A stretch of DNA of 64,000 nucleotides. Source: Octopus sinensis. Taxonomy: Eukaryota. Below, piece after piece: positions 5,415 to 63,926 of the stretch. Location of the stretch: NCBI RefSeq assembly GCF_006345805.1, contig NC_043001.1, positions 49,042,001 to 49,106,000 on the forward strand, read 5' to 3'. How positions within the stretch are numbered: the first letter of the stretch is position 1; every line of letters begins with the position of its first letter. A program made the position numbers and the translations under genes. Under the pieces are notes generated by a model that saw only the letters and a list, made by a program, of their open reading frames with translations, made no database searches and was not told where the DNA came from.

Positions 5415-6140
5415 TTTAATAAATAAAATATATGCATACATACATATATGTACGTACCGACATCTACCTGTATATATACATGCATATATATATGAGTACA
5501 GGACACCACAAATAGACGTAGAACTCAACGAGAAACGGAAACATAAAAACAAACATGGAAACGGACTTTTTTTAACAACGAAAAAACAGAGTACAAGACA
5601 AACAATACAAGGAATATTCCCCTTCATCAGCTGTCCCTGGTTCGACTCCATGCGTGTTTCGAAGGTAAGGACAGAACACGACCCGACGAACCAGTCCTTC
5701 CTGCAAAAGAATTAAATAAAATTCCTTTGCAGAAGGGTAAAAACAAGGAAAGAAAAAAATGTAACAAGAACAGGACGTAAAAGCAATACAAATAAAAATA
5801 CGAATACAAAATAATTTTTATTTTATTTTGTATTCGTATTTTTATTTGTATTGCTTTTACGTCCTGTTCTTGTCACATTTTTTTCTTTCCTTGTTTTTAT
5901 CCCTCTGCAAAGGAATTTTATTTAATTCTTTTGCAGGAAGGACTGGTTCGTCGGGTCGTGTTCTGTCCTTACCTTCGAAACACGCATAGAGTCGAACCAG
6001 GGACAGCTGATGAAGGGGAATATTCCTTGTATTGTTTGTCTTGTACTCTGTTTTTTCGTTGTCAAAAAAAGTCCGTTTCCATGTTTGTTTTTATGATTTC
6101 GTTTCTCGTTGAGTTCTACGTCTATTTGTGGTGTCCTGTA

Positions 6141-6206
<66 letters not shown>

Positions 6207-6272
6207 TGTATATATGCATGTAGATGTCGGTACGTACATATATGTATGTATGCATATATTTTATTTATTAAA
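5415..6272. repeat. About 860-bp fold-back palindrome (centre about 5818) of a PLE-terminal-repeat-like sequence in microsatellite context
   Basis: 5415-5814 is the reverse complement of 5823-6272 apart from a few substitutions and (TA)n length. Confidence 0.95.
5943..6018 (+). ncRNA. Candidate non-circularly permuted hammerhead ribozyme (mirror copy at 5619-5694, -)
   Basis: Strand order CGUGU-U-CUGUCC / CCUUC-GAAA-CACG / GGACAG-CUGAUGA-AGG. Stem I is 6 bp and stem III is 5 bp, both perfect; extra helix CUGGUUCG/CGAACCAG. Confidence 0.75.
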
Positions 6273-6364
6273 AATTATATATATATATATATATATATGC
6301 GCACACACATACACATGAATATGAATATATGTATATATGTACATATGCACACACACACACACAC

Positions 6365-7634
6365 ATTAGCAGAGATACCCGGCGTTGCTCGGGATTAAAA
6401 CGGCAGAGTTTGTTTTTATATATATATATTACATTTGTGGAGTAAATGTTAAAGCTTTGCATCTGTTTCGGAAAGCTATTCTATTGAACCTCTGCGTAAT
6501 CTGGCGTGCTAAACGTTGTTTTAATGATTCAGCATTAAGTGCTGCAGCATGCATTTGCTGATCTTGAGAAAGTCTCATTTCCCTTCTGTCTTGGGACTGT
6601 ATTTTCCTTTGGTGATCTTTGGAAAGTGTCATGTCCCTTCTGTATTGAGACTCCATCTGACTTGCTGCATAATGCCTTTGCTGATGTTGAGAAAGTCTCA
6701 TGTCTCTTATCTCTTGAGACTCTCGCCTTCAGTTTTCTGCACACCTCTTTGCTTTATAGGTGTTTCTGGAGAGATTACGGTTTCACTTTGGTGGCATATT
6801 TTTTTTTTCAATATTTTAAACAAAAAATTAGATACATAGAAAAAAATACATTAATCTCTATTTTTGCAAGCAGTTGTATGTATGTAGTATGTCTATATTT
6901 TTGTATGCAATGTAAAGTTACCAAATATAAACAATATGTAAATACCTTGCAAGCTTGCTATTGCTGCAATAATTATGAATTCTTAATGGAACGGTAGATG
7001 TGTATTTTTTATATATAACTTGGACCTTCCACGTAATTGTTTTTGTCGAGAGTTTGCGTAGATGTATGCGCGTGTGTAATAACGTAGGTAACGAGCGTGA
7101 AAACACACACTCACAGACACATACACATTCGTATACAAAATGTGACGATACGCACACATACACTCTCACATGCAGACACATACATATAGTTAGAGAGACA
7201 CATACAAACATACATTCATGCATGTCAGTCGTCACATGTGTATATGTATGTGTAGATATGTGTGTACGTTTAATAACGTACCTAACGCGGATGCACGCAC
7301 ATAGAAAGACATACACACTCAATACATCCACACACATACACTCAGAGACACATACACACATATATGTGACGTTGTCATCGTAGTAGTTTGAAATGTCCTT
7401 TAGTGTCTCGTACGCATCGAACGCACAAACACACGCACAAAACTAAAAGAATAAAAGTGAAGCAATATTACACAGCGGTTTTCGATAGAGGGAGAAATGT
7501 AAATAGTGTATTTAGATAGACGGGGTACAGAAAATTTGAAATAAGTAAAGTAATATTATAGAGAGAATGTACAAATAGCGTGAAACAAAGATATTTACAC
7601 TCGACAAAATTGAAATACACTGAAGCCAATTTTA

Positions 7635-7669
<35 letters not shown>

Positions 7670-8213
7670 GAGAGAGAGAGAAAGAGGGAGAGAGAGAGAG
7701 AGAGAGTGATTGAAAGAAACAGATATCTGTGCAATCTTTCGTTTGTAGTAGCACGTTTCCGTCGATGATTTCCGTAAAAAACTTTTCCCGCAAACCCATA
7801 TGTAAAAAAATAAAAGTTTTTTACGGAAATCATCGACGGAAACGTGCTACTACAAACGAAAGATCGCCGATATCTGTATATGTGAAAGTGAGAAAAAGGG
7901 AAAGAGATAAATAGAGAGAAATGGGAGAGACTTGTTTGAAAACTGCAGAAGTGAAAGGGAGAGAATCGGTTGGAAACTGCAGTCTTTTGAAGAAGAATCC
8001 ACGTGAAAAACTGTTTTTTTCATGGTCGGTTTGTTGCATTACGCGGGAGCTCTGGGAAAAAACTCATTGTGTTTGACCATCCATGGCCCATGAGTAATGT
8101 GTGTAAAGTTTGGTGAAAATCGGTTGAAAACTGTAGAAATGCATGCGTATTACACACACAGACTCACACACAGACACACACACACAAACATCCTTTGCTT
8201 TATATATATCGAT
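6365..8213 (+). mobile_element. Helentron/DINE-1-like non-autonomous rolling-circle element with a Helitron-like coding remnant
   Basis: 5' ttagcagagatacccggcgttgctcggg hairpin and 3' gtaaagtttggtgaaaatcggtt..(AC)n..gctttatatatatcgat. Minus-strand repeats ESQ..RREMRLSQDQQ.HAAA at 6480-6740 resemble Helitron N-terminal repeats. Confidence 0.6.
7734..7864. repeat. Perfect 53-bp inverted repeat with a 25-nt loop
   Basis: 7734-7786 is the exact reverse complement of 7812-7864. Confidence 0.95.
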
Positions 8214-8221
8214 ATATACAA

Positions 8222-8412
8222 GAATTGGCGCTAGGAAGGGCATCCAGCCGTAGGAGCAATGCCAAAACAAACATCAGAGCCTGTTACAGTCATATAACTT
8301 GCCAGTTCCTGTCAAAGCTACCCATGCCAGCATGGAAAACGTACGTTAAATATAATGATGATGATGATGATGATGATGATGACGATGACGATGATGATGA
8401 GGATGATGATGA
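8222..8412 (+). mobile_element. SINE family C fragment (ggaagggcatccagccgtag) with (GAT)n tail; other copies at 12316-12458(-) and 48250-48440(-)
   Basis: Shared core, gacgttaaa-type end and (GAT)n/(CAT)n tails. Confidence 0.75.
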
Positions 8413-9093
8413 TGGTATATATGCTGTGGTTAGTTTACACTGTACTTAGCGTTGTTACTAGTTCTGACATAAAAAGCATATGTTGTGGAAAATTAAGATA
8501 ACCACAAGCATAGATTAATAGTACCTACGTACGTTTCACCATTGCAGTTATTGCATGTTCCAAGTGCATTTGGATGCCTGACCGCAATGGATCATCAGGG
8601 GAACACTTCACTATATTCATTTATATGTGTATATTTTTTATGTATGTATGTATGTATTTATGTATGTATGTATGAATGTATGTATGTATATATATATATA
8701 TATATGTATGTATGTAATGTATGTGTATATGTGTGTATGTAAGTATGCTTGTATGTATGCATGTATACATATATGTATGTGTGTGTGTGTATATGTATAT
8801 ATATATATGTGTGTTTGTGTGTGTGAATGCATTATATATATATATGTGTGTGTGTGTGTATGTATGTATAATGCATGCAAACACATATTCGTATAAGAAT
8901 AATTGCGTCACGAATGATTATGGCTTAATAGTATTTGAAGGTTTTCCATGTGTCAAATATGTTGTAAATGCGCAGCTATTGCATAACCTCAGCTGTCTAT
9001 CCCTATCCCTTGAAAATATTTTTTCTCAAAGTCAAAAAAATAACGCAGTAAACATTATTCACCGTGACCTACCTTCCAATGTCTTTTTTTAAG

Positions 9094-9172
9094 GTGCCTA
9101 TATAGAAGTAATTTTGGAATCTTGGGCTGAGGATTTTGAAATACTCCAGCACCATAGTGGGTACATACAATG
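9094..9172 (+). CDS. OGFr-like gene 1, coding exon 2
   Basis: ttttttaag|..|gtaagt. Encodes (G)AYIEVILESWAEDFEILQHHSGYIQ(W); phases 1 and 2 fit both neighbours. Confidence 0.93.
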
Positions 9173-9295
9173 GTAAGTGCCTGATTAAATTTTTGCCTTA
9201 TCATTTTTTTATTGCCTGAGAAATATACATGATCTTTGTACTTTGACGGGCTAGATATTGTTTTATGTATTGGTCAGGTAGTCGTCTGTCTAAAT

Positions 9296-9636
9296 CAGTG
9301 GTTCTCAACCGGGGTCCATATGGCCCCTGAAAGTGCCTGTAAGATTTTTGGGGTCCACGCAACAAAATAGTAAATCGGAGATCCCCAATAATATTTTAAG
9401 GGCCCTTAAAATGCTTTAGATGTATGTATTGGTATGTATTGCAAGAAACATCTAGGATTCTTTCTCTAACATTTTACATAGTTTATCCTACACAAGTTAA
9501 TGTTTAAAAACAATATAGGAATTTTGAAAGAAGTTTCTATAAGGCTAATCTTTAAACATTGAACGGCTATGGGGGTCCACCAGAATAAAATAGTAATCAA
9601 AGGGACCCATTGATGAAAAATGGTCCAGAACCCCTG
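9296..9636. mobile_element. hAT (Charlie-like) MITE
   Basis: Ends cagtggttctc / agaacccctg with 8-bp TSD gtctaaat / gtctacat. Related copies at 45011-45290 and about 54411-55343. Confidence 0.85.
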
Positions 9637-10284
9637 GTCTACATGATAACTGGGTAGAGGCAGTGTGTATATGTTGATTGGATTGGTAGATAGATACACA
9701 GAGTGTCGATGTTTACTGAATAGTAAACGTGTGTAGTTATTGACTGGAGGAATATAGTATGTAGGGGTTGATTTGATTGACACAATGAACATATTTTGTG
9801 TAGATATTGGATAGTCACTGTATTAATATAAATACAGGGGACATTCAAATGTACATAGATGTTGATTGGATGGTATACATAAATGTTGATACAATGTGTA
9901 GACGTTGATTATGCAGAGAATATTTGTAAGTTGGTTTGATTCGCACTTTGTGTAGATCTTGACAGCAGAGATAGACATAGAGAAACATAATGTTTAAATG
10001 TGAACAGGTTATATACTGGGTATAGATGAAAACTGGGGAGAACTGTGCATACCTATTAATTGGATTGATATAGGGTACAGATATTGATTGAATTGAATTG
10101 AAAAATATTGCTGAAATCGTCTGGATAGAAACAGTACGTAAGATGTTCACTCGACATACATACCTTGCAAGCTCACTATTTTGCCTCCGGTGTAAATAGT
10201 GACTTGGTGGACAAAGAGTGAAAAAATGTCTACCCAGTAGAAATAATGCATAGATTTTGCTTATGAGTCAATCTATGCAGATTT

Positions 10285-10329
<45 letters not shown>

Positions 10330-10416
10330 TATATATATATTACGGAGATGTACTCGCATAGCAAGTATATATATATATATTACGGACATGTACTCGCATA
10401 GCAAGTATTATATATA

Positions 10417-10474
<58 letters not shown>

Positions 10475-10476
<2 letters not shown>

Positions 10477-12290
10477 TAGTCAATTTAGGGTAGCAAAAAA
10501 TTTAATAGAAATTTATCGCTACCAGCGGCCTGATGGAAAAGAGAAAATAGTCAACGACTAATATATATATATAACAATTTAGGAGTGACCCTCACAGGTC
10601 ATTCGTCCACCAGAAAGAGCAGCCATAACTCACACACCGCCAAGTAGTAGTAATTCAGAAATTAGGTGAAAATTTAAAAACATTTACCCCAATTCTTCTT
10701 TTAGACGTTGCAACGTTTCTGTGTCATTAATGATTAAATTAGCTTAATTAAATTAATTAAGCCAATCTACCATAGGTTACACTTCATCAGTAAAAAACCT
10801 GGGAGAGACAAATATACACGAGGCGTCTGTATCGATGCCTACGGAATATAGTCTTAAAATTTTCAAGACTGACGCATTCGCGCCAAACTTATCAGCAGTA
10901 AATATAAACTGCCGATTCAATCTCAAAATATTCAGAAAATTATCAATTAGTCAATTTAGGGTAGCAAAAAATTTAATAGAAATTTATCGCTACCAGCGGC
11001 CTGATGGAAAAGAGAAAATAGTCAACGACTAAATATATATATATAACAATTTAGGAGTGACCCTCACAGGTCATTCGTCCACCAGAAAGAGCAGCCATAA
11101 CTCACACCGCCAAGTAGTAGTAATTCAGAAATTAGGTGAAAATTTAAAAACATTTACCCCAATTCTTCTTTTAGACGTTGCAACGTTTCTGTGTCATTAA
11201 TGATTAAATTAGCTTAATTAAATTAAATTAAGCCAATCTACCATAGGTTACACTTCATCAGTAAAAAACCTGGGAGAGACAAATATACACGAGGCGTCTG
11301 TATCGATGCCTACGGAATATAGTCTTAAAATTTTCAAGACTGACGCATTCGCGCCAAACTTATCAGCAGTAAATATAAACTGCCGATTCAATCTCAAAAT
11401 TATTCAGAAAATTATCAATTAGTCAATTTAGGGTAGCAAAAAATTTAATAGAAATTTATCGCTACCAGCGGCCTGATGGAAAAGAGAAAATAGTCAACGA
11501 CTAAATATATATATATAACAATTTAGGAGTGACCCTCACAGGTCATTCGTCCACCAGAAAGAGCAGCCATAACTCACACCGCCAAGTAGTAGTAATTCAG
11601 AAATTAGGTGAAAATTTAAAAACATTTACCCCAATTCTTCTTTTAGACGTTGCATTAATCATTAATGACACAGAAACGTTGCAACGTCTAAAAGAAGAAT
11701 TGGGGTAAATGTTTTTAAATTTTCACCTAATTTCTGAATTACTACTACTTGGCGGTGTGAGTTATGGCTGCTCTTTCTGGTGGACGAATGACCTGTGAGG
11801 GTCACTCCTAAATTGTTATATATATATATTTAGTCGTTGACTATTTTCTCTTTTCCATCAGGCCGCTGGTAGCGATAAATTTCTATTAAATTTTTTGCTA
11901 CCCTAAATTGACTAATTGATAATTTTCTAAATAATTTTGAGATTGAATCGGCAGTTTATATTTACTGCTGATAAGTTTGGCGCGAATGCGTCAGTCTTGA
12001 AAATTTTAAGACTATATTCCGTAGGCATCGATACAGACGCCTCGTGTATATTTGTCTCTCCCAGGTTTTTTACTGATGAAGTGTAACCTATGGTAGATTG
12101 GCTTAATTTAATTTAATTAAGCTAATTTAATCATTAATGACACAGAAACGTTGCAACGTCTAAAAGAAGAATTGGGGTAAATGTTTTTAAATTTTCACCT
12201 AATTTCTGAATTACTACTACTTGGCGGTGTGAGTTATGGCTGCTCTTTCTGGTGGACGAATGACCTGTGAGGGTCACTCCTAAATTGTTA
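10475..12290. mobile_element. HHR-bearing tandem and inverted array (family HH-A): 2.5 direct copies of a 471-472-bp unit, then about 1.35 inverted copies, inside (TA)n
   Basis: Units start at 10475, 10946 and 11418; inversion junction at 11654/11655. This architecture is typical of Penelope-like terminal repeats and retrozymes. Confidence 0.92.
12068..12165 (+). ncRNA. Type I hammerhead ribozyme (also 10699-10795 and 11169-11266 on -)
   Basis: UUUUA-CUGAUGA-AGUGU..ACACA-GAAA-CGUUGCAACG-UC-UAAAA. Palindromic stem III, GUC triplet, long stem II insertion. Confidence 0.88.
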
Positions 12291-13126: not shown

Positions 13127-13196
13127 GTTGTTTCCTCTCCCGAGAAGCAGCAAGACGAATATTTATGCTCAGCCATTAACAGAAAAAGAGAGAGGC
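13127..13196 (+). CDS. OGFr-like gene 1, coding exon 3
   Basis: ctcaag|..|gtaagt. Encodes (W)LFPLPRSSKTNIYAQPLTEKERG, completing the YIQWLFP signature. Confidence 0.93.
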
Positions 13197-15551: not shown

Positions 15552-16005
15552 GATAGGCCAGTTACTGCGGTATTTGTCTCGGAATAACATCTCTTCTGGA
15601 TTTGTTGTGTTTAAAACAATAAATATTAGAGAGAAATGCAGACGTTCGTCCCAGCAGTAGCCAGCGAGGGCGCTAGATACATTTCGGCCTTTTGGGGCCT
15701 TTTAATTTAATCCCTCATCAATTGCATATACTAGATTATTAAATCCGGGAGGCTATTCGCAACATCAGTGAATGATTTATTCACCTATTTCTATATCAGA
15801 GACGACGAATTCTCGTTCAAGCATGTGGCTGGCTGTGAGCACACGCCTTTGAAAAAAGCCCCAAAAGGCCGAAATGTATCTGGCGCTTTCCCAGGCCAAT
15901 GCTGGAATAAATTTTCGTCTCTCACTGATATTTATTGTGGTTTTTAACACAGCAAGTCCATAAGAGATGTTATTTCAGGACAAATACTACAGTAACTGGC
16001 CTATC
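15552..16005. repeat. Aged inverted repeat with degenerate HHR cores (15844-15885 +; about 15672-15724 -)
   Basis: Arms at about 15552-15700 and 15858-16005; each has ggcc-GAAA-ugua-UC. Confidence 0.65.
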
Positions 16006-19946: not shown

Positions 19947-22044
19947 TACCAATTAAGGACTGAACACGAAAAGGTGGACAGTCAACATGCTAGATATAGA
20001 CGTCAAATCGCCATTCTCCACAAGGATTATGTTCTCAAATAAAAATAAAATTCAGCACGACCTAAAGCAATGGATGAGACAAAAGAAAAATACTAAGTGG
20101 AATAATTACCTACGTACTGCAGTTTCAGCTATTAATATCACAAGGATATCTGTAGCTTCATCAGCGTCGTTTGTTATGAGCATAATATGCTGTACTAGAT
20201 GAAAAACGGTACCGGAGTCCCGCATGCAAAAAGTACAACCTATTACGTTCGGATGTATCTTTCGAATGCCTCTACTTTTGGCGCGCTGATAATCGAAAAA
20301 CTAGCCTGCAGCCAATAATTAGCAGCAGTCAATTTATCGGTTTGAGAACATATATTTCATATTTAAAAATTAAGGGTAGAAATTGATATTAGTCAATTAA
20401 AACCAGTGGTCTAGCACATTAAAAAGAATCCGAAGATTAAAATATTTTATATACCAATTAAGGACTGAACACGAAAAGGTGGACAGTCAACATGCTAGAT
20501 ATAGACATCAAATCGCCATTCTCCACAAGGATTATGTTCTCAAATAAAAATAAAATTCAGCACGACCTAAAGCAATGGATGAGACAAAAGAAAAATACTA
20601 AGTGGAATAATTACCTACGTACTGTAGTTTCAGCTATTAATATCACAAGGATATCTGTAGCTTCATCAGCGTAGTTTGTTATGAGCATAATATGCTGTAC
20701 TAGATGAAAAAACGGTACCGGAGTCCCGCATGCAAAAAGTACAACCTATTACGTTCGGATGTATCTTTCGAATGCCTCTACTTTTGGCGCGCTGATAATC
20801 GAAAAACTAGCCTGCAGCCAATAATTAGCAGCAGTCAATTTATCGGTTTGAGAACATATATTTCATATTTAAAAATTAAGGGTAGAAATTGATATTAGTC
20901 AATTAAAACCAGTGGTCTAGCACATTAAAAAGAATCCGAAGATTAAAATATTTTATATACCAATTAAGGACTGAACACGAAAAGGTGGACAGTCAACATG
21001 CTAGATATAGACGTCAAATCGCCATTCTCCACAAGGATTATGTTCTCAAATAAAAATAAAATTCAGCACGACCTAAAGCAATGGATGAGACAAAAGAAAA
21101 ATACTAAGTGGAATAATTACCTACGTACTGCAGTTTCAGCTATTATATCACAAGGATATCTGTAGCTTCATCAGCGTAGTTTGTTATGAGCATAATATGC
21201 TGTACTAGATGAAAAACGGTACCGGAGTCCCGCATGCAAAAAGTACAACCTATTACGTTCGGATGTATCTTTCGAATGCCTCTACTTTTGGCGCGCTGAT
21301 AATCGAAAAACTAGCCTGCAGCCAATAATTAGCAGCAGTCAATTTATCGGTTTGAGAACATATATTTCATATTTAAAAATTAAGGGTAGAAATTGATATT
21401 AGTCAATTAAAACCAGTGGTCTAGCACATTAAAAAGAATCCGAAGATTAAAATATATCTAGCTATATCTAGCATGTTGACTGTCCACCTTTTCGTGTTCA
21501 GTCCTTAATTGGTATATAAAATATTTTAATCTTCGGATTCTTTTTAATGTGCTAGACCACTGGTTTTAATTGACTAATATCAATTTCTACCCTTAATTTT
21601 TAAATATGAAATATATGTTCTCAAACCGATAAATTGACTGCTGCTAATTATTGGCTGCAGGCTAGTTTTTCGATTATCAGCGCGCCAAAAGTAGATGTTG
21701 ACTGTCCACCTTTTCGTGTTCAGTCCTTAATTGGTATATAAAATATTTTAATCTTCGGATTCTTTTTAATGTGCTAGACCACTGGTTTTAATTGACTAAT
21801 ATCAATTTCTACCCTTAATTTTTAAATATGAAATATATGTTCTCAAACCGATAAATTGACTGCTGCTAATTATTGGCTGCAGGCTAGTTTTTCGATTATC
21901 AGCGCGCCAAAAGTAGATGTTGACTGTCCACCTTTTCGTGTTCAGTCCTTAATTGGTATATAAAATATTTTAATCTTCGGATTCTTTTTAATGTGCTAGA
22001 CCACTGGTTTTAATTGACTAATATCAATTTCTACCCTTAATTTT

Positions 22045-22050
<6 letters not shown>
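19947..22050. mobile_element. HHR-bearing tandem and inverted array (family HH-B): 3 direct 505-506-bp units, then about 2.6 inverted 222-bp sub-units, inside (TA)n
   Basis: Units start at 19947, 20452 and 20958. Inverted sub-units start at 21473, 21695 and 21917. Confidence 0.92.
21121..21179 (-). ncRNA. Type I hammerhead ribozyme (also 20110-20169 and 20615-20674 on -)
   Basis: CUACG-CUGAUGA-AGCUA..UAGCU-GAAA-CUGCAG-UA-CGUAG. Palindromic stem III, GUA triplet. Confidence 0.9.
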
Positions 22051-22403: not shown

Positions 22404-22625
22404 TGTCGGGCATGTGGAAGAAAGCGTAATTCGGCAGGAGGTTCATGAAGCCCAGTTACAACTAGAGCCGGCTATTACCAGTAAAGGTTTTAGTTGCCAA
22501 TTTTGTACAAGACATTGTAGAACTTTAGCTGGGCTAAAAAGTCACATTCGATCACAGCACCAGTAACAGTTAAGCTTCGTGCAATGGCCATACTCGATAA
22601 CGAGGGGGCAGCCATAATAATAATG
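22404..22625 (+). mobile_element. RTE-type LINE 3' end with C2H2 zinc fingers, embedded in (ATGT)n
   Basis: CRACGRK..., CQFCTRHCRTLAGLKSHIRSQH*, short 3' UTR. Near-identical to 42945-43155. Confidence 0.8.
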
Positions 22626-28089: not shown

Positions 28090-28720
28090 TTCTCATCAGA
28101 AAAGTAATCTGAGGGAGCTAGGCCTGGACTATATGCTGGGTGTGGACATCAATTCGATTTCCCCAATTTCGTGCAGTTCATCCTGGGTGGTTCCAGCGGT
28201 ATGAGGTCTTGCGTTGTCTTGCTGCAGAAGAGCTCACTTTCTGTTAAACAATGCCGGGTATTTTTGCCTCACAGTGGTATACAACCTTGAAATCCCGAGC
28301 TCGTCTGATACTATCCGAGTTCTACTCGCCAGGCTTGCCTCTGTGGTTTGAAGCACGGCCTCAGAATCCACGGTTTTAGGCCTACCTGACCTTGTCTGAT
28401 CATCGATGTTCTTGCAACCCGAGCGAAAGTTCTCGAACCATCTGCGATCAACTGCGCCTTCACCCTTTGTGCAACAAACGTTTTTGGTTGCTTCCGTGGT
28501 ATTATGGCAAAGTTCGAATTAGTGAAGCTTAAGTTCCTGTTTTTGACTATGTTGCTTTCAAATGACATACAGAATGAAGCAATGCACATTGTGTCAGCAC
28601 ATTATCTACTACAATACTACCAACCTCAGCGGGTATCTTCCGCGGCTTTAACTGCTTCGGTTCTGTGATATACACGCTGCAAACCTGCATGTATGCAAAT
28701 ATCTATCTATATCTCAAAAA
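28090..28720 (-). mobile_element. Internally deleted mariner, same family as 55997-56890
   Basis: Minus-strand KGEGAVD..WFENFRSGCKNIDDQTRSGRPK, LLQQDNAR, HPAYSPGLAPSDY. Confidence 0.85.
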
Positions 28721-40975: not shown

Positions 40976-41046
40976 GCCGGAGCGATCTCAAGATTAATCA
41001 GCCGAAATTGCGAGGATGATCCGGTTCTTGACTGAAGATTAGAGGC
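40976..41046 (+). ncRNA. Second candidate non-circularly permuted hammerhead ribozyme
   Basis: GCGAU-C-UCAAGA / CAGCC-GAAA-UUGC / UCUUGA-CUGAAGA-UUAG with extra helix GCCGGA/UCCGGU. Stem II is weak in this copy. Confidence 0.65.
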
Positions 41047-41135
41047 TTCGAATGACCCGTCCGTTTTTTGTGTCGTCTATTTGAGTGTTTTGCGTTCTTG
41101 TCCTATTTTGTTTTTTTTATATATTTTTTATACAT

Positions 41136-48954: not shown

Positions 48955-49520
48955 GATTCCCCCCGTACGGCACGAATGTAGCCACTAACATAGCTAGAAA
49001 ATTCCTAAAAATAATAGATAACCACTCCCCACACTCACACAAATACCAAAATATCTTCAATAGAAATACGGTTAGAGTCAGCTATAGTTGTTGCCCCAAT
49101 TATACTCAACCACAATAACAATGCTAGGAATATTTTCAAAAGACAATGTAATTGTATTTTCCCGGACAGTTGTCCCTTGAATAAGATGTGCCAAGAAAAA
49201 GCACATCTATACAAGGCCAATATCACGGATTTTAATGGAGAAACAAATACATATATCCGACCGACATGGAACTCCTTCAAAGAAAGATATACACTGCATT
49301 TGGCGTCATTTAGAGACAAAACTAAAAAGCACACGATATATATATCCAATATGGTATGGATACTGAAAGAAACGGGTGTAGCAACCCCCCTATAACTCGG
49401 ATCATTATCACTAAAGCCAATAAATACAGGGGACAGGGTAAAAGATGTAAGCTTTGCATCACTGAAAAACTAAACATCATCCAATCAAAAGTTAATATTT
49501 TAAATACTAGGGATGTTACC
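48955..49520 (+). pseudogene. Penelope-like element linker plus GIY-YIG endonuclease remnant
   Basis: PPYGTNVATNIARKFL, IFNRNTVRVSYSC, CNCIFPDSCPLNKMC, LYKA..TYI..SFKERYTLHLASF, RCKLCITEKLNII..LNTR. Confidence 0.9.
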
Positions 49521-50245
49521 TTCTTTCCTTCTCTCCTTGCATGCATAAGCAACATATTACACTCTGAAATTTCAAAGAGGACTCTCACTTACTTTGCTAC
49601 TCTTCCAACCTGGATAGGTTTTCTTCTCTGAACATTAACTATATACAGCATATGAACTTTATTAACAGAAGACGCATGCCCTCATGTTGAGCTCCTCCAG
49701 CACACAAATATACGAGTGTTACACATACTCAGGATATTATATGATATACACAAACTTATCATTGAACGATCCCATAATTTTACATTCCAATAAATCAAAC
49801 TTGACGTCAAAATATGTGTAAGATACATGAAGTTACACAATCATTTGTACATACCCAAACACGAACAAAATGCATAATGCAAATGCACAGATGTGTACGC
49901 GTATGTACACATATGTGTATTTTGTTTGTATGTATGTATTTTGTATGTATGTATGTATGTATGTATGTATGTATGTATGTATGTATGTATGTATGCATGC
50001 ATGCATGCATGTATGTATGCATGTAGGTATGCATGCTTGTATGTATATCTCTATATACATATATAAATATATACGTACAACATATATATATGAACATGTA
50101 GGTATGCATCTCCATGTATACATGTATACATACATGTTTACGAAAACAAACAAAGGTTTACGAAAACAAACAAAAAACAAAGGCAGGTGGATTACAAACA
50201 AACAAATGTATTAGTATAGCGCTGAGGAATAGAAATAGAAAAAGC

Positions 50246-50281
50246 CTTTTACGTTTCGAGCCTAAGCTCTTCGACAGAAAG
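50246..50281 (-). ncRNA. Minimal type I hammerhead-like motif with core variant CUGUCGA, within a PLE-terminus-like repeat (about 50135-50345)
   Basis: CUUU-CUGUCGA-AGAGC-UUAG-GCUC-GAAA-CG-UA-AAAG. Confidence 0.6.
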
Positions 50282-51020
50282 ATACACAGAAAAAAAACAA
50301 GGAGAGAAAAAAATGCGTGTAGGAGCTAACGATCTATCATGGCACAATATATTATATATATACATATGTATTACACACACAGGTATGTATGTATGTATGT
50401 ATGTATGTATGTATGTATGTATGTATGTATGTATGTATGTATGTATGTATGTATGTATGTATGTATTTATGTATGTATGTATGTGCAGGTGTGTGTGTGC
50501 ATCTACATGTGTACAGCTACGTTATCTTGGGCTCGTTCCCTTAGCAAACCAATCGGAAATAAAAAAGTTTAAATACAGTATGAATACATGTAACGAAATC
50601 ATTTAGAGAACAGACACCAAAATAAGGATACATTGAAAAAATACAGGCAGACATTAAATGAATTTTAATGCAAAATATTACACTTTGAAAAGCACTGTAA
50701 CATTTCATGGCAGTACACACAGAGTTTCACACAGATGTACAAATGGGATAATAACCTTGTAGGTGTGCAACACATACCAGAGCAGGATACATTGAAAGAT
50801 ACAAGCAGAGATTAAATCAATTTTAATGCGGCAGTACAAGCAGAGAAGTATAGAAAAAAAAACTGGACTAATAGTTGGAAATAGGCAAATGAAAAAGAAG
50901 AAAAAAAGCAGGCAGGTGTAAGAAATAAATAAGCAGAGATACATCAATTCATAGACGAATACATTTAATCAAGATTTGGACCTGGGAGCAGGCTCATAAC
51001 GGCTTACCACTGTGTTAGAT

Positions 51021-51391
51021 GGGGATCTCGGTACTATTTAAATACAGAGGTCCCGACGCATCTACGTAACCCTAACCCCAACCCTAAAAACTAATCCTAA
51101 AACTAACCCTAACCCTAACCCTAACTAACCCTAAAACTAACACTAACCTTAACTTACCCTAACTCTAACCCTATATAATCCTAAAATTAACCCTAACCCT
51201 AACTAACCCTAAAACTAACACTAACCTTAACTAACCCTAAAACTAACACTAACCTTAACTAACCCTATCTCTAACCTTAACTAATCCTAAAACTAACCCT
51301 AACCCTATCTCCCTAATGAGTGCGCACTGTAAAAACATACCGTTACGTAGATGCATCGGGACCTCTGTATTTAAGTAGTGCCGAGGTCTCT
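51021..51391. mobile_element. MITE-like element: about 48-bp inverted repeats enclosing degenerate telomeric (TAACCC)n
   Basis: 51023-51070 versus 51342-51389 with few mismatches; interior about 240 bp of TAACCC variants. Confidence 0.85.
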
Positions 51392-54564: not shown

Positions 54565-55137
54565 TTGGGTTGTCCGGAAAGTTCGTGCCGACTTTTAAAG
54601 GAAAGAAAAAGGTCAATAAATATTTGCCATTACCCAAGCTTTACCAGGTGCTCACGAACGACGGATTTTGATAGGTTGAGGCTTTCTGCCAATTCTCAGG
54701 TTGTGCAACGTGGGTTATTCTCAGTTAATGACTTGATTTGGTTATCATCTGTAGTGGATAGTCTGCTTGATCGCTCTTTATCAATAAGGCTACAATCTCC
54801 AGCTCGGAACCTTGCGAACCACTTCCGTACAGTTCTTTCGGATAAAGAAACATCACTGTAAACTGCGCATATTCCTTTGGTTGCTTGTGAGGCATTTTTC
54901 CCTTTACGGAAAAAGAAAAGCATCAAGTGCCGAAAATGAACTTTCTTATCTTCCATTTTAAAGGGTTTCAGAATTAACACAGATTATAGGAACATAAACC
55001 TTCTTCCACGAAAGATAGCTTAAACTGTGCTCTAAATGGAGGTGTAGTCAAATCCTATTTTGTAGACTCAAACATGTTCTAAAATAAGTCGAAAGGTAAG
55101 CTACTATAAATCGGCACGAACTTTCCGGACAACCCAA
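54565..55137 (-). mobile_element. Internally deleted mariner (mellifera-like) nested in a hAT MITE
   Basis: TIR ttgggttgtccggaaagttcgtgccga at both ends with TA TSDs. MEDKKVHFRHLMLFFFRKGKNASQA..WFARFRAGD from 54956. Confidence 0.95.
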
Positions 55138-55698: not shown

Positions 55699-55758
55699 GA
55701 TGATATACAAAAAGATATTTTCTCTTGCTGTAAAGGTTGTCGACACGTACATGCCTTG
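55699..55758 (+). CDS. Candidate 60-nt exon of OGFr-like gene 2 (phase 0: DDIQKDIFSCCKGCRHVHAL)
   Basis: Long polypyrimidine tract, attacag| acceptor and TTG|gtaaga donor. Confidence 0.5.
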
Positions 55759-55996: not shown

Positions 55997-56890
55997 TTGA
56001 GGCGAGTCAAAGGTTTTGCAATATTTGCATACGTTCTAATTTGCGGCGTGTATATCATGTGACCGAAGTAGTTAAAGCCGTGAAAAGTAGCCGCTAAGGT
56101 TGGTAGTATCGTGGTAGTTGGTGCGCTGACACGTGCATTGTTTCACTCTGTATGTGATTTGAAAGACGCCCTGATGAACATGCAACGTAGTCAAATTCGG
56201 AAACTTATGCTTTACGAGTTCAGACTGGGTCATAACGCCGCAGAAGTAACCAAAAGCATTTGTTCAACGAAAGGTGAAGGCGTAGTTGATCACAGTACAA
56301 TAACCATATAATTCAAGAAATTTCGACCGGGTTGCAAAAGCCTCGATGATCAGGCAATATAAGATAGGCCTAAAATCGTAGATTTCGAAGCCGTGCTCCA
56401 AGCCAAAGTGGCAAATCCGATGAGTAGCTCTCGGAGAGTATTAGGTGAGCTTGGCATCTCACAGATGTATGCCATCGTGTGGCAAAAATGCCCAGCATTG
56501 TTTAACAAAAGTTGAACTCTTCTACAGCAAGACAACGTAAGACCTCATACCGCCCGAATGATTCGCAACAAACCCCAGGAACTTGATGGAATCGAACTGA
56601 TGCCACACTCAGCACATAGTCCGGATCTAGTTCCCTTGGATTATTACTCGTTCCAGTCCATGGTCCACTTCTTACACTCGTGACGCTTTATCAACCACGA
56701 GGAAGTGGAAGCTTCTGTGAAAGAGGTCTTCGCCTTTAAGACAGGAACTAGTATCAACATGGGGGCCAAAGAATTGGCGGAAAAATGGCTTCAGACAGTG
56801 CAACACTGAATGCGAGGCTGATTTTGTTGTGAATTGGCGAATAAAGCAAATAAGATACTAAAATATCGCAAAACTTTTGACTCAACACAG
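55997..56890 (+). mobile_element. Internally deleted mariner with decayed transposase
   Basis: Imperfect TIRs gagtcaaa(g/a)gttttgc(a/g)atatt with TA flanks. MLYEFRLGHNAAE, LLQQDNVRPH, HSPDLVPLDY. Confidence 0.9.
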
Positions 56891-57481: not shown

Positions 57482-57550
<69 letters not shown>

Positions 57551-57733
57551 CGCAGGCATAAAATATTTAGCGGTATTTCGCCTGTCTTTATGTTTTGAGT
57601 TAAAATTCTGCCGAGGTCGACTTTAACTTTCATTCTTTCGGAGTCGATGAAATAAGTACCAGTTGAGTACTGGGTTGATGCAATCGACTAGTCTATCCCC
57701 AAGAATTTCAGGCTTTTGCCTATAGTCGAAAGG

Positions 57734-57782
<49 letters not shown>

Positions 57783-57850
57783 GTAGTAGTAGTAGTATTT
57801 TACATGCTGAGTCTGGAGGAGGTGGCAGTGTCCATGACCTTTCCAGGCCC

Positions 57851-58736: not shown

Positions 58737-60338
58737 CCAGGCCCTCCTTGATTGGTGTCATTAATGTTTTTCCTTGAATCTTTGTAAATCAACATATAAA
58801 AGTAGGGGTGGGCTAATTCTAGAGGAAAGGAAAAACTGAGCGTAGTGATTAGTGAGAGGCCTGGGAGGTATTGGATATCTCAAAGGTAATAAGAATAAGA
58901 CAAAGGATTGTGTATATGTGTGGTTGTGTGTCTATATTTGTGTACATAAAGATAAATAGAGTATCGAGTTTTGACACTTTTTGTCAAATGGCTAACTAGC
59001 CGCTCAGTAAAGAGAGATTGATAAAATACATACAAGACTGAAATGAATATTTGGTTACATTCAAGATAGTTCCCACCATGGCCACAGCTCAATGTCTTTG
59101 TTGTTAAAAAGTCTTTGCATTATTTCTCAAATCATTAAAACAAAGAGTTGGGGATTCTTGTATGTGAAAACAGGAAAAAAAATCTGAAATAGTAAAAAGA
59201 ATAGATTCTCGTGCATATGGTAATTTATTATCGGTTGGCAGATATCAGTACGCATCAGCAAATAATTTATTTGCTATAATTATGAGCAAGAGCCACAAAC
59301 TCTTATTAGATTTATAAATCCGTGATAGTTTTGACTGAACAGGCAAAACTATGCCGAAACACCGAGTGTCCCACAACCTCCTTACGCTAATGAATCGAGT
59401 GTGTTACGAACACAGATTCGTCTGAATATGTGTGCAATAACGATTAGCAAATTCACGTTTGAACAACTGGAACGAATTAAGAACGAATATGCGAGTATCG
59501 TCTTCAAAAAATAGACTTAGCACAATTCTGGTACAATTAGCAGAATATTTCTATCAGAACACGTAACGTGAACGTTTGCCTTCTGATATCTACTCCAGTG
59601 ACTGAACCTATTAAAAGAATGAAAGGACCTCTCCCCACCTCCTTCTCTCTCTCTCCCTCTCTCGCTATCCGTAACAACTTTGCCTTGAACAGCAAAAAAT
59701 ATTTTTCAAATATTATGAATAAACTTCATCAACGGTGTTTTGCTCTTTCGTAAGATTGTAAGCCAAAGACACTGGTACAGCCCTGATCTCAAATATATTA
59801 GAATATTATTGGCCGGCCTGCTCTAGTGTACTGGTTCTCACACTAATAAATACCAGAACAACACACACAATAAGAAAATATTCCCGAGAATTTTTCGCCT
59901 CCCGCTTATTAATGAGAAGACAAAATAGAGTTTGCTTCCATATAATTCTTATTTCTTCAAAATTTAGAAGTTTGACATCATCTTAATCTATAATTTTATT
60001 TAACATAGCAGTTTGTTGGTACCCTTTTTCACCATCCACAACCTTCTTTCCTATTAGAAACGTAAGACTAGTAAATATTTTTCTTGATTTTTCTCTTGTA
60101 TATTTTCATCCAGTTCAACTCTGAAAATTTCACTTCTTTCTTGGTAGCTCTCTACTACCGTTTGCGACGACCTGTTACTGTCTCGTCTCATTCAGTTACA
60201 ATCGGGCCGCGAAAATTTTTTCCCAGGAGAGTTCCGGACCCCAGTTATGAACTCATTTGCATACAGCCAATCAGAGCTCAACCATCAAACTAATGTCCAC
60301 CTAATACAGTTCCTTATTTAAGAGATGATGAATTATGT

Positions 60339-60534
60339 ACATTATTTACATTTGACGGATATTTGTCCTCATCTTGTTTGTTGTTAATACAACATCGAAA
60401 AATACCTTAGGAATGGGAATCCAGATTCGAAATTTCCCCAGTACACCTAATGAAGGCTGGAGGGTATATCAGCTGGAACGTTGTGTTAACAACAAACAAG
60501 ATGAGGACAAATATCCGTCAAATGTAAATAATGT
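60339..60534. repeat. Short inverted PLE-terminus-like repeat with a decayed HHR (60443-60486 +)
   Basis: 55-bp arms at 60339-60393 and 60480-60534. ACAC-CUAAUGA-AGGCUG..CAGCU-GGAA-CG-UU-GUGU. Confidence 0.75.
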
Positions 60535-61209
60535 AAATAATGTAGTGTCCACCTAGTTACGAAAATACTCAGGTTGAAAATGGGGAAAATGTGCGTTATA
60601 GCAAAATCTAACTGTTCTAAACGGGTTAATAAGGGTGACAAATGTGAAATTTAGTGTATAAAGTGAATGGAGAGTTGCTCACCGATGATGCCATAAGTGT
60701 TGCCAATTTGCGTAATTTATTAGAAAATGTATATCTCCTTCTCTCTCTTTTACTTGTTTCAGTCATTTGACTGCGGCCATGCTGGAGCACCGCCTTTAAT
60801 CGAGCAATTCGACCCCGGGACTTATTCTTTGTAAGACCAGTACTTATTCTATCGGTCTCTTTTGCCGAACCGCTAAGTGACGGGGACGTAAACACACCAA
60901 CATCGGTTGTCAAGCAATGCAAGGGGGACAAACATAGACACACAAACACACACACATACACACACACATATATATATATATATACGACAGGCTTATTTCA
61001 GTTTCCGTCTACCAAATCCACTCACAAGGCATTGGTCGGCCCGGGGCTATAGCAGAAGACACTTGCCCAAGATGCCACGCAGTGGGACTGAACCCGGAAC
61101 CATGTGGTTGGTTAGCAAGCTACTTACCACACAGCCACTCCTGCGCCTATGAGGATAGTTTCCTAATTTTTTGACTGATTTTATACATTCCTAATTTAAA
61201 ATGTTGATG

Positions 61210-61790
61210 TTGGTCTGGAAGCATCGTAATCAATATGGCGTTGTGTGGTATTGCGCTCTCCTTGCATATATTAATGGGTACATGCAGTATTGCTAATCTC
61301 AGTCTGAGCATAGGCACCTAATGTTAGCTCCATATAGAGATGGTGCTCAATTGATCTACGAGGATTGTGTAGAGGGGAATGTGGTGTTTATGTGAGACTT
61401 GCTATGCTGTACTCACAGAGTAGTGTACACCATTCTATTCCTGACTGGCTGTACTGTAGCAGTATGTGGATTTTCAAGGTAAGCTCTGATTAACTGTATG
61501 CAAATGAGTTCATTACTGCCGTCCAGAACTCTCGTGGCAAAAAAGATTTCGCTATCGGGCCACCCATTTCAGCATTTGATGACATCCTTATAACGGAGTT
61601 TCGCATTCTTTCTTCGATAGCTTCCAAATTCTAGCTGGTTGTATAGTCGTGGAGGTTTTATTGTCTCCCGTAGGTATCACATGTTCCACCCAGTACAACT
61701 GTAATTTCAGTGGGGGAGACTCAACATTCGGCATTGTTTACTTGTTGCAAGACCTCCTGGTTAGAGGTGTAACGTCAAAGGATATTCCTT
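61210..61790 (-). pseudogene. RTE-type LINE C-terminal fragment
   Basis: SNQEVLQ, MPNVES..LKLQLYWVEHVI, KLRYKDVIK. Confidence 0.75.
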
Positions 61791-62339
61791 AACATAAGGG
61801 GCAAAAAAATAATATCGAAGATTAGGCAAAACAAAGGTTTTCTTTCCGTCAGAAAGGAGACCCCCGACGTTCTTGGCTCTCAGACTACATACCTGTATAC
61901 TGTTATCAGGGTAGAGATGACTTTCCTCAAGTCGAGCCCCGTGAGTCAGAGTGGCTGTTCCAGCGCGTCTCCCTCACCATCTTCCGGGACTAAAGCCTTT
62001 TCCATTTTGCCCACTGGGACCATGAGGCGGATTGACAAGTCTTATGTCTCTTAAACATAATGTCTATCAATACAACATTCTATTCTGCAAAAAGATGGAT
62101 CCTGCATTGACCAAATCCTGGAATGAGAGCCTTTTTAATAGGCTGCTTGCCTGCTGAAGGAACCTGTCACTCATCTCTTCAAATAAAAGTTTACTGTCTG
62201 GCAAATATCCATTGCCACATACGTTAACATTCTCTCAAATTGTACTTCTTATTTAAAATCCAAAAAATATTGTTATCAAGCCAGTTATGCTTTATTTATT
62301 TGTGTCACATTTTTCTATCTCTTTCTCTCTGTCTCACAG

Positions 62340-62457
62340 CCTCTGATAATGCATTGCGGGACAAATCTAGAGGACAATAAATTATTATACGCTCTCAACA
62401 AAGTATCACATCCGAATCTGGATTTTTACCAAAATAGAATCAAGTCTGAACCCAACG
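62340..62457 (+). CDS. OGFr-like gene 2, exon equivalent to exon 1 of gene 1 (gene continues beyond the window)
   Basis: Strong acceptor ctctgtctcacag|. Encodes PLIMHCGTNLEDNKLLYALNKVSHPNLDFYQNRIKSEPN-G|gtaaac, with the same phase-1 intron after PN as at 4880. Confidence 0.8.
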
Positions 62458-62862
62458 GTAAACACAGAGTCAGAGGAAACTGGTGGTGGTTTGCACTAAC
62501 AAAAATTATACGGAGTTACTAACCACACTGAATTATTTCTCGTAGCTGATTTTTATTTCTATTATACGAATTACACAAGACCATAAAAAAAAACTGTCTT
62601 TTCCTTTATGGTAGGTCAGTTTCGAAAAATTCTTGATTCCTGGAATTATATCACTTCCTTTTTCGGAGTTAGTTGCAACTATCACAAGGCATTCGTTTTA
62701 TGTTCTGAAGCGAAGATAATTTCAACAAATAAATAACGTATCTTGTAGGGTTCTCAGTCTTTTATCCGTCTTTGTTGTCTAAAGCCATGGCCAAACTGAG
62801 TTATCCAATAATTTCTCTTAGTTCACACACACACACACACACAACACACACACACACACACA

Positions 62863-62893
<31 letters not shown>

Positions 62894-62920
62894 CATCTAT
62901 ATATATATATATATATATAT

Positions 62921-63926
62921 AAGTTCAGCAAAAATTTAGATTCAAATGAATATGGTACTTAATTTAGATGCACCAGAATTCTGTATGGTGTTATCCATAA
63001 AAATCTGTGGGGTGATTATAATCAAAATAAGCAACAAGAATGACTCCGGTAATTTTGTACGGTCGTTTCGTACTACATCATTTTATTAAATGTTGTAAGT
63101 ATTACAACAGTTTTAAAATGCTGAGCACTCATCAGCCAATTATAGAGGTTTTCCATTAATACAAAAATTTTCAAATCAAGTGGCAACATTATAGAGAAGG
63201 TAGATATATAGACAAAGATGTGGATTTAAATTTTGAGAACATTTGAGGTAGTGGAGCCCATCAACTGACTGACTAAGATTCAGTTGTTCCAGACTACTGT
63301 AAGGTTCTGAGAGTGAAGAACAAATGAAAGGAGACAATAAAGATTTTTTAATTATAGAAATGGGGTAAAGGAGATGTCAGAGCTCCATATAAGGAATTTA
63401 TGTAGAAAACAACATTGTCACAACTAAATGCCAATTACTACTATTTGATGAACAGATTCAGCGTTAGGAGAACTAGGTCAATGTCAAGAGGTCTCAATAA
63501 CATTCACAGAGAATGCAGAGACCTTACAAATCCTATGCACATCATCACAACAGTTGTGATGATGTGCATAGGGTTTATCCCATTTCTATAATTAGAAAAT
63601 CTTTATTGTCTCCTTTCATTTGTTCTTCACTCTCAGAACCTTACAGTAGTCTGGAACAACTGAATCTTAGTCAGTCAGTTGATGGGCTCCACTACCTCAA
63701 ATGTTCTCAAAATTTAAATCCACATCTTTGTCTATATATCTACCTTCTCTATAATGTTGCCACTTGATATGAAAATTTTTGTATTAATGGAAAACCTCTA
63801 TAATTGGCTGATGAGTGCTCAACATTTTAAAACTGTTGTAATACTTACAACATTTAATAAAATGATGAAGTACGAAACGATCGTACCAAATTACCGGAGT
63901 CATTCTTGTTGCTTATTTTGATTATA
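62921..63926. mobile_element. HHR-bearing fold-back element (family HH-C) between (TA)n tracts
   Basis: Arms at about 63017-63369 and 63574-63926; perfect central hairpin at 63532-63572. Confidence 0.9.
63804..63889 (+). ncRNA. Type I hammerhead ribozyme (mutated mirror copy at 63054-63139, -)
   Basis: UUGG-CUGAUGA-GUGC..GUAC-GAAA-CGAUCG-UA-CCAA. Palindromic stem III and long stem II extension. Confidence 0.9.

Follow-up and report, generated by a model that had tools for sequence, protein, structure and literature searches.

Families A and B, two families of non-coding repeats in the genome of Octopus sinensis, are probably split-core hammerhead ribozymes (HHRs) that take one strand of stem II from upstream, are spread by the enzymes of Penelope-like elements (PLEs) and likely cleave themselves. 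They account for two of eight HHR sites in the window, that is, the whole stretch of 64,000 nucleotides that was analysed, and every one of the eight is a copy of a repeat family that has many members and HHR features. The other six families (C, D, E, F, G and H) have the ordinary HHRs, type I or minimal, of PLEs and retrozymes, some of them decayed, and are of known kinds. The scrambled, split-core form of A, B and a further lineage, N, is in contrast predicted to be new and is likely to cut RNA.

The blocks of families A and B were found in the non-circular order S-G-C. This order had been recognised in the earlier note and stood; the main point, the 5' strand of stem II that lies upstream, had been missed. 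In the three-dimensional fold that we infer, P4a, the P5 hairpin and the 5' strand of stem II would be followed by P0a, the cleavage block, the 3' strand of stem II with GAAA, P0b, the stem I strand with CUGAnGA and P4b (Table 1). Stem II would draw its 5' strand from upstream and not from behind CUGAnGA, P0 would link stems I and II at their far ends, and P4 and P5 would close a four-way junction at A9/G10.1, holding A9 beside G10.1 with no covalent link between them. The topology would be that of an SGC/CSG ribozyme opened inside block C. As the window copy of family B is without P4a, P5 and the upstream strand of stem II, it is likely inactive. Among the best-scoring copies the core (CUGAnGA, GAAA and the U-H site) was intact in 29/31, 12/27 and 13/20 for subfamilies A1–A3, in 28/29, 25/33 and 24/35 for B1–B3 and in 22/31 for N.

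Table 1. Hammerhead-related features of the window (positions counted from its first letter).
Feature	Position	Strand	Remarks
Family A split-core SGC hammerhead	5901..6018	+	complete copy
Family A, P4a	5901-5904
Family A, P5 hairpin	5905-5936
Family A, stem II 5' strand	5937-5941
Family A, P0a	5943-5952
Family A, stem III	5957-5961
Family A, predicted cut	after 5962		GUU
Family A, stem I	5963-5968 / 6001-6006
Family A, stem II 3' strand	5972-5976
Family A, GAAA	5977-5980
Family A, P0b	5991-6000
Family A, CUGAUGA	6007-6013
Family A, P4b	6014-6018
Family A, inverted second copy	5619..5736	-	fold-back arms 5436-5814 / 5823-6201
Family B split-core SGC hammerhead	40977..41110	+	5'-truncated copy
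Family B, predicted cut	after 40987		AUC
Family B, stem I	40988-40993 / 41026-41031
Family B, GAAA	41004-41007
Family B, CUGAAGA	41032-41038
Family C old fold-back repeat	15552..16005		decayed minimal type I HHR at about 15844-15890
Family D array	10475..12288		472-bp tandem and inverted, between (TA)n tracts
Family D type I HHR cores	10790, 11261	-
Family D type I HHR core	12073	+
Family E minimal type I HHR	50180..50340	-	CUGUnGA core at 50277
Family F minimal type I HHR	60323..60525	+	with inverted arm; core 60447
Family G array	19949..22047	-	505-bp tandem and inverted 222-bp, between (TA)n tracts
Family G type I HHR cores	21174, 20669		third copy near 20164 fails the descriptor
Family H fold-back	63021..63922		between (TA)n tracts
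Family H long-stem-II type I HHR	63808	+
Family H inverted copy	63135	-	broken stem I
PLE GIY-YIG endonuclease remnant (putative)	49018..49631	+	frameshifted; unlinked to any of the eight ribozymes

Pairing of the upstream strand was evaluated in alignments of the seven subfamilies (A1–A3, B1–B3 and N; 206 rows), where it formed stem II in 87–99% of cells. In each subfamily the helix starts with G10.1-C11.1, while five different helix sequences were observed. Stems I, II and III showed covariation in A, B and N, in B for stem II only through the upstream strand, and P0 was 92–98% paired with compensatory changes. In lineage B, 9 of the 31 pairs showed such changes, located in stems I, II and III, P0 and P4, with none in the four P5 pairs counted; in lineage A they occurred at 3/5 stem II pairs and 3/5 P5 pairs. 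These figures derive from few subfamilies and from alignments built on best-scoring copies, so that the cells are not independent events. P4 was less regular in B1 and B3, where its first two pairs are U-U and 65–71% of it is paired. No fixed difference separated the B subfamilies at the 11 core positions, against 15–20 of 70 elsewhere.

It is very unlikely, and largely refuted already, that the S-G-C order and the upstream stem II were over-read from chance pairing in AT-rich, related repeat copies. The structure was first drawn from these very sequences and related copies inflate covariation counts; pairing nevertheless fell from 96% to 24–48% in lineage B and from 97.6% to 38–56% in lineage A when partners were slid. 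The eight-segment layout with its spacers, including zero-nucleotide P4/P5/II junctions, recurs in three lineages that cannot be aligned (A, B and N) and, by eye, the layout does so in Naiads of other phyla. The split descriptor gave 0 matches in 5 shuffles of 800 kb, and in its strict form it passed 0 of the 8 permuted-family copies in an 800 kb genome sample. ViennaRNA is unable to form the pseudoknotted fold, and its near-zero stem I probabilities are therefore uninformative.

No published hammerhead broken between A9 and G10.1 was found in a literature search that covered few subscription papers. The phosphate region of A9 binds metal. On both accounts the activity of a split core is not assured. 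Since a stem II can be paired from the strand after A9 in lineage A, this lineage may be a plain SGC ribozyme, with the upstream strand and P4/P5 as a conserved off-state that would block cutting until remodelled by transcription or a protein. After one bulged A, 98.6% of cells in this lineage allow a 4-bp, G-U-rich stem II (74–79% of five positions), this register is pairable in all three A subfamilies, a bulged base at the same place is common in PLE HHRs (PMC4209133) and P4 is preferred to the canonical strand in equilibrium folding. We nonetheless regard such a switch as unlikely. It is impossible in lineage B, which has an invariant core and the clearest junction step (see below); there the strand after CUGAnGA pairs with that before GAAA in 0–24% of cells, against 87–97% for the upstream strand, and the canonical duplex amounts to -2 to -3 kcal/mol in A and about 0 to +1 in B and N, compared with -6 to -12 for the upstream duplex. 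Two further ways of restoring a continuous core were rejected: a canonical stem II with a 5-nt insertion after A9 fits B1 only and breaks in B2 and B3, and splicing that brought A9 together with the following unit's upstream strand would find an AG acceptor only in A1 and no GT donor after A9.

The split-core form was compared with known ribozymes. The type-SGC/CSG HHRs of Eckert et al. (2023, PMC10085705) share with A, B and N the block order S-G-C, all core nucleotides, a linker of 1–5 nt from stem I to stem II and an 'I' helix that, like P0, connects stems I and II at their far ends. Block C, which comprises the stem I strand, CUGAnGA and the stem II strand, is taken there to be unbreakable. 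Here, in contrast, it is split, with a strand of stem II at the 5' end and P4 and P5 filling the gap, and post-A9 pairing is 0–24% in B and 33–64% in N, with a weak alternative in A; A, B and N thus have the block order and far-end helix of type SGC but not its uninterrupted block C, in which a stem II strand lies within 1–2 nt of CUGAnGA. The same source places permuted SGC/CSG RNAs in metatranscriptomes and metagenomes and in no known organism's genome except for a weak GCS candidate, whereas A and B have thousands of copies in an animal genome. The pseudoknot (PK) hammerhead (PMC11300833) is likewise a natural HHR, has additional helices and replaces part of its stem II by a pseudoknot. It keeps A9 joined to G10.1 and builds the pseudoknot from loop II, unlike the break at A9/G10.1 and the non-circular order found here.

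The same split-core fold was found in the Naiad lineage of this genome, lineage N, about 1.3 kb downstream of Naiad-type reverse-transcriptase (RT) fragments. Its 16-nt motif has 406 exact genomic matches (control, 0) and its surroundings match, by eye, the printed 3'-end consensus of the octopus Naiad (Craig et al. 2021, PMC8557442). At three loci (L334, L329 and L340) an RT fragment precedes Naiad 3'-UTR sequence on the same strand; the spacing to the ribozyme is that given above in L334 and L340, and L329 had no ribozyme match. The best database match of the RT fragment carries an N-terminal endonuclease tail, CxC and DKA, which is the Naiad layout. From the Naiad ORF of this genome, broken RT fragments with no Pfam match were recovered, and extension of six Naiad loci did not reach the endonuclease or recover a copy bearing it.

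Naiads are reported to have no canonical HHR, only marks termed 'HHR_core' and 'HHR_half_core' (PMC8557442). These marks may be read as CSG or split-SGC ribozymes. Among 25 published Naiad 3' ends inspected, 12 contained a non-circular HHR by eye (5 split, 1 partly split and 6 CSG) and 13 did not; the split fold was seen in the consensuses of cnidarians, an acanthocephalan and cephalopods, and type CSG in those of nematodes and spiders. On balance, we favour the reading that Naiads across animals carry active non-circular HHRs, CSG in nematodes and spiders and, in the other three groups, the split core as a seventh topology; the split form would have amplified in the present genome to tens of thousands of copies in non-coding, retrozyme-like families whose truncation points record cleavage in vivo. 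No prior report of the split-core form or of permuted HHRs in Naiads was found, few subscription papers being covered. Like Naiads, families A and B are associated with (TA)n and occur as 5'-truncated copies, partial tandems and inverted copies. Unlike lineage N, families A and B are non-coding; they gave no significant alignment to it and no RT match was found beside their copies. Only the shared ribozyme architecture and the TA junctions would tie them to Naiad. A tail motif shared among A, B and E did not prove general.

Cleavage was assessed indirectly from the junctions between truncated copies and microsatellites. In family B, 93 junctions with (TA)n lie at +1/+2 of the predicted cut as opposed to 16 at -2/-3 (p=2e-14 on a 50:50 null), and this upstream control has microhomology at least equal to that at the cut. 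Of 32 distinct junctions distinguished by eye among the first 100 rows listed, 29 were at +1..+11 and 3 at -10 to -15, and six inspected copies joined at +1 had different flanks and differing element sequences. The step may be taken as indirect evidence of cleavage in family B. Family A provides a weaker test; 19–20 of its 24 junctions lie downstream of the cut, mostly at +7..+9 where TTA microhomology favours joining.

Microhomology also shapes the distribution in B, many of whose junctions lie at the AT-rich positions +6..+11. This would suit a conserved fold that is no nuclease and instead serves Naiad RT as an HHR-derived recognition element or terminal structure, the junction bias then reflecting RT stalling together with TA microhomology. 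Naiads also proliferate without canonical HHRs (PMC8557442), 13 of the 25 Naiad 3' ends inspected lack the motif, and the core is no better kept than its surroundings in A2 (6.4% vs 5.2%) and A3 (4.1% vs 3.8%). We consider this improbable, as all 11 catalytic positions and a U-H site are fixed across the seven subfamilies and the step coincides with the bond predicted by structural analogy, where an RT proceeding 3' to 5' would already have melted P0 and stem III. In the self-cleaving reading that we prefer, transcripts of the 0.7–0.95 kb units would be cut at the ribozyme, which would give them a fixed 5' end. A Naiad-type RT/endonuclease would then copy the cut RNA from its 3' end into TA microsatellites, so that copies start at or just after the cut site, and copies with a whole ribozyme would derive from templates that were uncut, in tandem or circularised. 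Naiad would mobilise A and B in trans.

The six ordinary families resemble metazoan non-LTR retrozymes and minimal PLE HHRs (PMC7229834, PMC4209133, bioRxiv 2026.07.22.740005), with type I or minimal HHRs in non-coding units; retrozymes are defined by type I HHRs and circRNA expression. Families D and G are retrozyme-like in their tandem arrays with one HHR per unit, and type I HHRs in non-coding units (longest ATG ORF 65–84 aa) were found in D, G and H, tandem in the former two and fold-back or solo in H. The HHR of family D has a long stem II with one extra A on either side. Families A and B have a retrozyme-like unit size but a non-circular ribozyme, and family E departs from retrozymes by U at core position 6. 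The frameshifted remnant in Table 1, which we take from its motifs to be a PLE GIY-YIG endonuclease, had no Pfam match, and no convincing link of it or its 30 best relatives to a permuted ribozyme was found.

The HHR sites exceeded chance expectation, as the earlier note had claimed: the six-order descriptor at a score of >=13 gave 6 matches in the window compared with 0.07 per shuffled window (15 shuffles), and a relaxed type I descriptor gave 7 compared with 0 in 12 shuffles. The eight families were indeed mutually non-alignable except for short T-rich stretches, and annotation does overlook them, since an Rfam scan of the window at gathering thresholds found none of the eight sites. The sites are not all intact, contrary to what had been supposed. 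That at 15844 (family C) is decayed, as are its relatives (72–87% identity, intact core in 0/9); that at 50246 (E) has a core variant, CUGUnGA for CUGAnGA, seen in 8/11 copies with none canonical; that at 60443 (F) has two core changes, 10/18 family copies being intact; and that at 40976 (B) is 5'-truncated. First-look candidates genome-wide, which are lower bounds and not copy numbers, were at least 2897 for A (5943), 2296 for B, 280 for C, 1338 for D (12068), 915 for E, 1750 for F, 272 for G (21121) and 2161 for H (63804). Family A was also seen in four contig-form sequencing runs under four organism labels, where both bases of one stem I pair were commonly changed, the changes being unphased; the sequencing-run index listed no RNA run for this family.

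The proposed association with (TA)n held for most families assessed. A tract of (TA)>=5 within 250 nt downstream was found for 24/25 copies of A, 22/26 of B and 7/9 of E, compared with 622/4000 random positions, and the D, G and H arrays are TA-flanked within the window; the claim failed for C and F (0/9 each), the latter being flanked by (AAT)n. Arrays were likewise borne out for D and G (tandem) and H (fold-back), while in the permuted families they are a minority state, with fold-back at 1/28 loci of A and 3/29 of B; among 89 A loci there were 8 same-strand neighbour pairs, and among 109 B loci 13. That the eight sites are mostly arrays was not supported. An apparent rule that family A is nearly always fold-back was an artefact of a fold-back query.

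The density of the window is not typical of the genome, 7 intact type I motifs in 64 kb standing against 15 in 799.6 kb sampled at 80 fixed places. The window is roughly 5–7 times denser (binomial test, p=0.0008 when motifs are counted and 0.05 when insertion events are). Extrapolation from this sample nevertheless supports the large, varied and unannotated ribozyme repertoire in non-coding PLE-type retroelements that had been proposed, with estimates of about 51,000 for intact type I motifs (95% CI 29,000–84,000) and about 27,000 for permuted-family copies whatever their state (12,000–54,000); about 11 families can be told apart by eye among the 14 type I matches listed from the sample. The genome is thus estimated to hold tens of thousands of HHR motifs in mobile repeats, most of known kinds. 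Large HHR repertoires of animal PLEs and retrozymes were published earlier (PMC4209133, PMC7229834, bioRxiv 2026.07.22.740005), and this part of the result is therefore known.

If true, the split core contradicts an assumption stated for the six possible hammerhead permutations, that of an uninterruptible block C. Non-circular permutations, hitherto a matter of anonymous metatranscriptome contigs, would also gain a place in animal genomes and a named host element. A split or scrambled form would explain why Naiads were reported as lacking HHRs, an absence that had been used to argue that HHRs merely ride on PLEs and that now has a testable answer. A CSG form in tandem repeats that acquired an insertion where the core tolerates one would offer a concrete route by which permutations evolve. 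The junction test suggests that ribozyme activity may be read from genome sequence alone, and as current descriptors and Rfam miss the split motif, counts of invertebrate ribozymes are likely too low.

The six-block-order descriptor identified 6 hammerhead ribozyme (HHR) motifs scoring at least 13 in the window (G000:C5:49042001-49106000, genome size 2.72 Gb) versus 0.07 per shuffled window, four in families G and H and two being copies with the block order cleavage site (S), GAAA (G), CUGAnGA (C). A relaxed type I descriptor returned 7 motifs (three in D, two in G, and E and H) versus 0 in 12 shuffles. This partly confirms the HHR motifs reported by the earlier note at eight sites. Each of these sites is multi-copy, first-look candidates numbering from hundreds to thousands per family across the genome, but they are not intact everywhere, as the HHR of family C is decayed, the core of E is non-standard and the window copies of F and B are mutated and truncated, respectively. 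An Rfam scan of the window gave no match. Microsatellites were plentiful in the window and no long coding ORF was found in it, only transposon fragments and repeat-derived frames.

Positions of features in the window and at loci elsewhere in the same genome (L numbers)
Feature	Window	Elsewhere	Remark
Hammerhead sites by family	A 5943, B 40976, C 15844, D 12068, E 50246, F 60443, G 21121, H 63804		
S-G-C copies	6007 (+), 5630 (-)		
Family E copy	50244-50283 (-)		CUGUnGA kept here and in relatives; position 7 varies between copies
Further type I HHR family, long stem II		L353-L377	415 first-look candidates; read by eye, opposite strand
Another short type I HHR family		L006:613, L030:710-775, L041	Adjoins A and B copies as insertions
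Family B copies, sense-strand A-to-G excess		L138:8560-8900; L054:1950-2140 and 2690-2880	
Second N subfamily		L297, L306, L307, L324	P4/P5 sequences changed yet pair by eye
Old Penelope-like element (PLE) clade, C-terminal GIY-YIG remnant	49018-49631	L178-L206	8745 first-look candidates; copies have a 3' region in common, closed by (TA)n and without an intact HHR by descriptor
Mariner/Mos1-type transposase remnants (Pfam HTH_48)	28105-28702, 54696-54983, 56021-56643		
C2H2 zinc-finger-like frame in repeated segment	42020-42419, 22409-22616		Probably 3' end of a LINE
Telomere-like (TAACCC)n array	51067-51307		Degenerate, chromosome-internal

Eighty 10-kb stretches at fixed places (799.6 kb in total) were utilized as a genome sample. 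This contained 15 type I motifs versus 0 in 4 shuffles, and 25 matches, versus 15 in the window, to a library covering the eight families and related split subfamilies; the window is therefore roughly 5–7 times denser in HHRs than the sample and not typical of the genome. The strict six-order descriptor gave 9 sample motifs at 13 or above versus 2.25 in shuffled sequence. Scaled up from the sample, the genome would hold some 51,000 type I motifs with an intact core (29,000–84,000), which bears out the predicted very large repertoire, a claim that is true and mostly known already. Association with (TA)n held for families A, B and E, whose copies are followed by TA tracts far more commonly than random positions, but not for C and F, which showed no such excess. 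Of the tandem or fold-back arrays described earlier, those of D (472 bp unit) and G (505 bp unit) are tandems; both arrangements are a minority among A and B copies.

The hammerheads of families D, G and H are of type I and sit in non-coding units, and those of C, E and F belong to the minimal types; all six families match the PLE hammerheads and non-LTR retrozymes described in the available parts of PMC4209133, PMC7229834 and bioRxiv 2026.07.22.740005. Family E is an abundant core variant (10–11 copies per 800 kb) whose ribozyme may be slow or dead, because changes at core position 6 lower activity according to the portion available of PMC3088659.

Families A and B follow the block order that Eckert et al. 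term type SGC (PMC10085705), which confirms the earlier "non-circularly permuted" form; beyond this, the 5' strand of stem II is predicted to come from upstream. In the available text of that paper, no type SGC RNA was found in any known organism's genome, and CUGAnGA and its stem II strand are taken as inseparable. Diverged sets A2, A3, B2 and B3 and a third lineage, N, were gathered, giving seven subfamilies that were aligned from the best-scoring 20–35 copies each. All seven subfamilies show pairing in stems I and III, with helix P0 closed around the S and G blocks. The partner of the strand that precedes GAAA lies upstream of P0 (87–99% of cells), the strand following A9 pairs with a segment still further upstream (P4), and hairpin P5 fills the remaining gap without spacers. 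Canonical stem II pairing is absent in B (0–24% of cells). Pairing fell to 24–56% in slid-partner controls, and no two of the lineages A, B and N align; chance pairing is regarded as very improbable. Compensatory changes were observed at 9 of 31 pairs in lineage B and, over P4, P5 and stem II, at 6 of 14 in lineage A, where stems I, III and P0 were left out as out of register in the alignment used; with few subfamily splits in either lineage these are not independent events. Fixed differences between B subfamilies fell at 0 of 11 core positions versus 15–20 of 70 elsewhere.

Counting against the split fold, A retains a weak canonical stem II alternative, U-U pairs open P4 in B1 and B3, conservation within subfamily is no better in the cores of A2 and A3 than around them, and the strict split descriptor was passed by 0 of 8 sampled genomic copies. 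A switch model is considered unlikely. In several N copies the truncation falls between P5 and stem II. In the A-to-G-rich B copy at L138 compared with those at L054, picked by eye post hoc, 7–8 A>G, 0–1 G>A and 0 T>C changes were counted, which would fit retrocopies of ADAR-edited RNA; the seven subfamily sets contained no such copy.

Retrocopies, if made from cut RNA, are expected to have their 5' junctions at the predicted cut. Among six B copies from the random sample, one (locus L140) started there. Genome-wide, 93 (TA)n joins to B copies lay at +1/+2 versus 16 at -2/-3, where microhomology is as great or greater. A gapped search gave 32 distinct places among the matches listed (the first 100 of 4002 overlapping), of which 29 were at +1 to +11, 3 beyond -9 and none, one ambiguous place aside, at -1 to -9. 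Six B copies joined at +1 have unrelated flanks. Family A followed the same trend, confounded by TTA microhomology; the public sequencing runs consulted were contigs only. The bias in B is indirect evidence suggestive of cutting, and a non-catalytic element appears improbable. The best explanation, which we consider probable, is that A and B are split-core hammerheads with the predicted P4/P5 four-way junction and are likely self-cleaving.

The fold would correspond to an SGC/CSG ribozyme whose chain is interrupted at A9/G10.1, the other two arms of the junction being P4 and P5. The A9/G10.1 position is a plausible exit point because an extra base there is common in PLE hammerheads (PMC4209133, available part). 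According to the accessible text of PMC11300833, A9 and G10.1 stay connected in the PK hammerhead, which is therefore no precedent for the split form, predicted to be broken there. Same-strand spacings are mostly 710–950 nt, and cleavage would trim tandem-unit transcripts as proposed for other PLE hammerheads.

Naiads, a PLE type, prefer (TA)n and lack a canonical HHR, some having only a "core" or "half core", according to the part available of Craig et al. (PMC8557442). In the last ~600 bases of 25 of 54 Naiad consensuses, read by eye with record names inferred from file order, the full split form was present in five (two octopus, hydrozoan, box jellyfish and acanthocephalan), a split form with weak stem II in one squid record and contiguous CSG in six (five nematode, one spider), while 13 showed no such motif. 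A motif from the published octopus consensus occurs 406 times in the genome, which makes an octopus its likely source, and the octopus form is represented here by lineage N. At loci L334 and L340 a reverse transcriptase (RT) fragment lies ~1.3 kb upstream of the N ribozyme on the same strand; at L329 the RT fragment and 3'-UTR sequence are present, with no ribozyme match. The fragment's best database match (54% identity) has Naiad layout. Since no RT match was found adjoining A or B copies, we infer that Naiad mobilises these on the grounds of their architecture, their TA junctions and 5' truncation of varying extent.

Extra helices in hammerheads may have been reported before, because PMC13725137, in the part available, mentions such variants, citing three papers including Eckert; a term search of the accessible text of the second gave no extra-helix passage. 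In the literature searched, split-core hammerheads were absent, as were permuted ones in Naiads or any animal genome. The new part is a predicted variant within a known kind of ribozyme, the split-core non-circular hammerhead, together with its link to Naiad; both are open to direct test.
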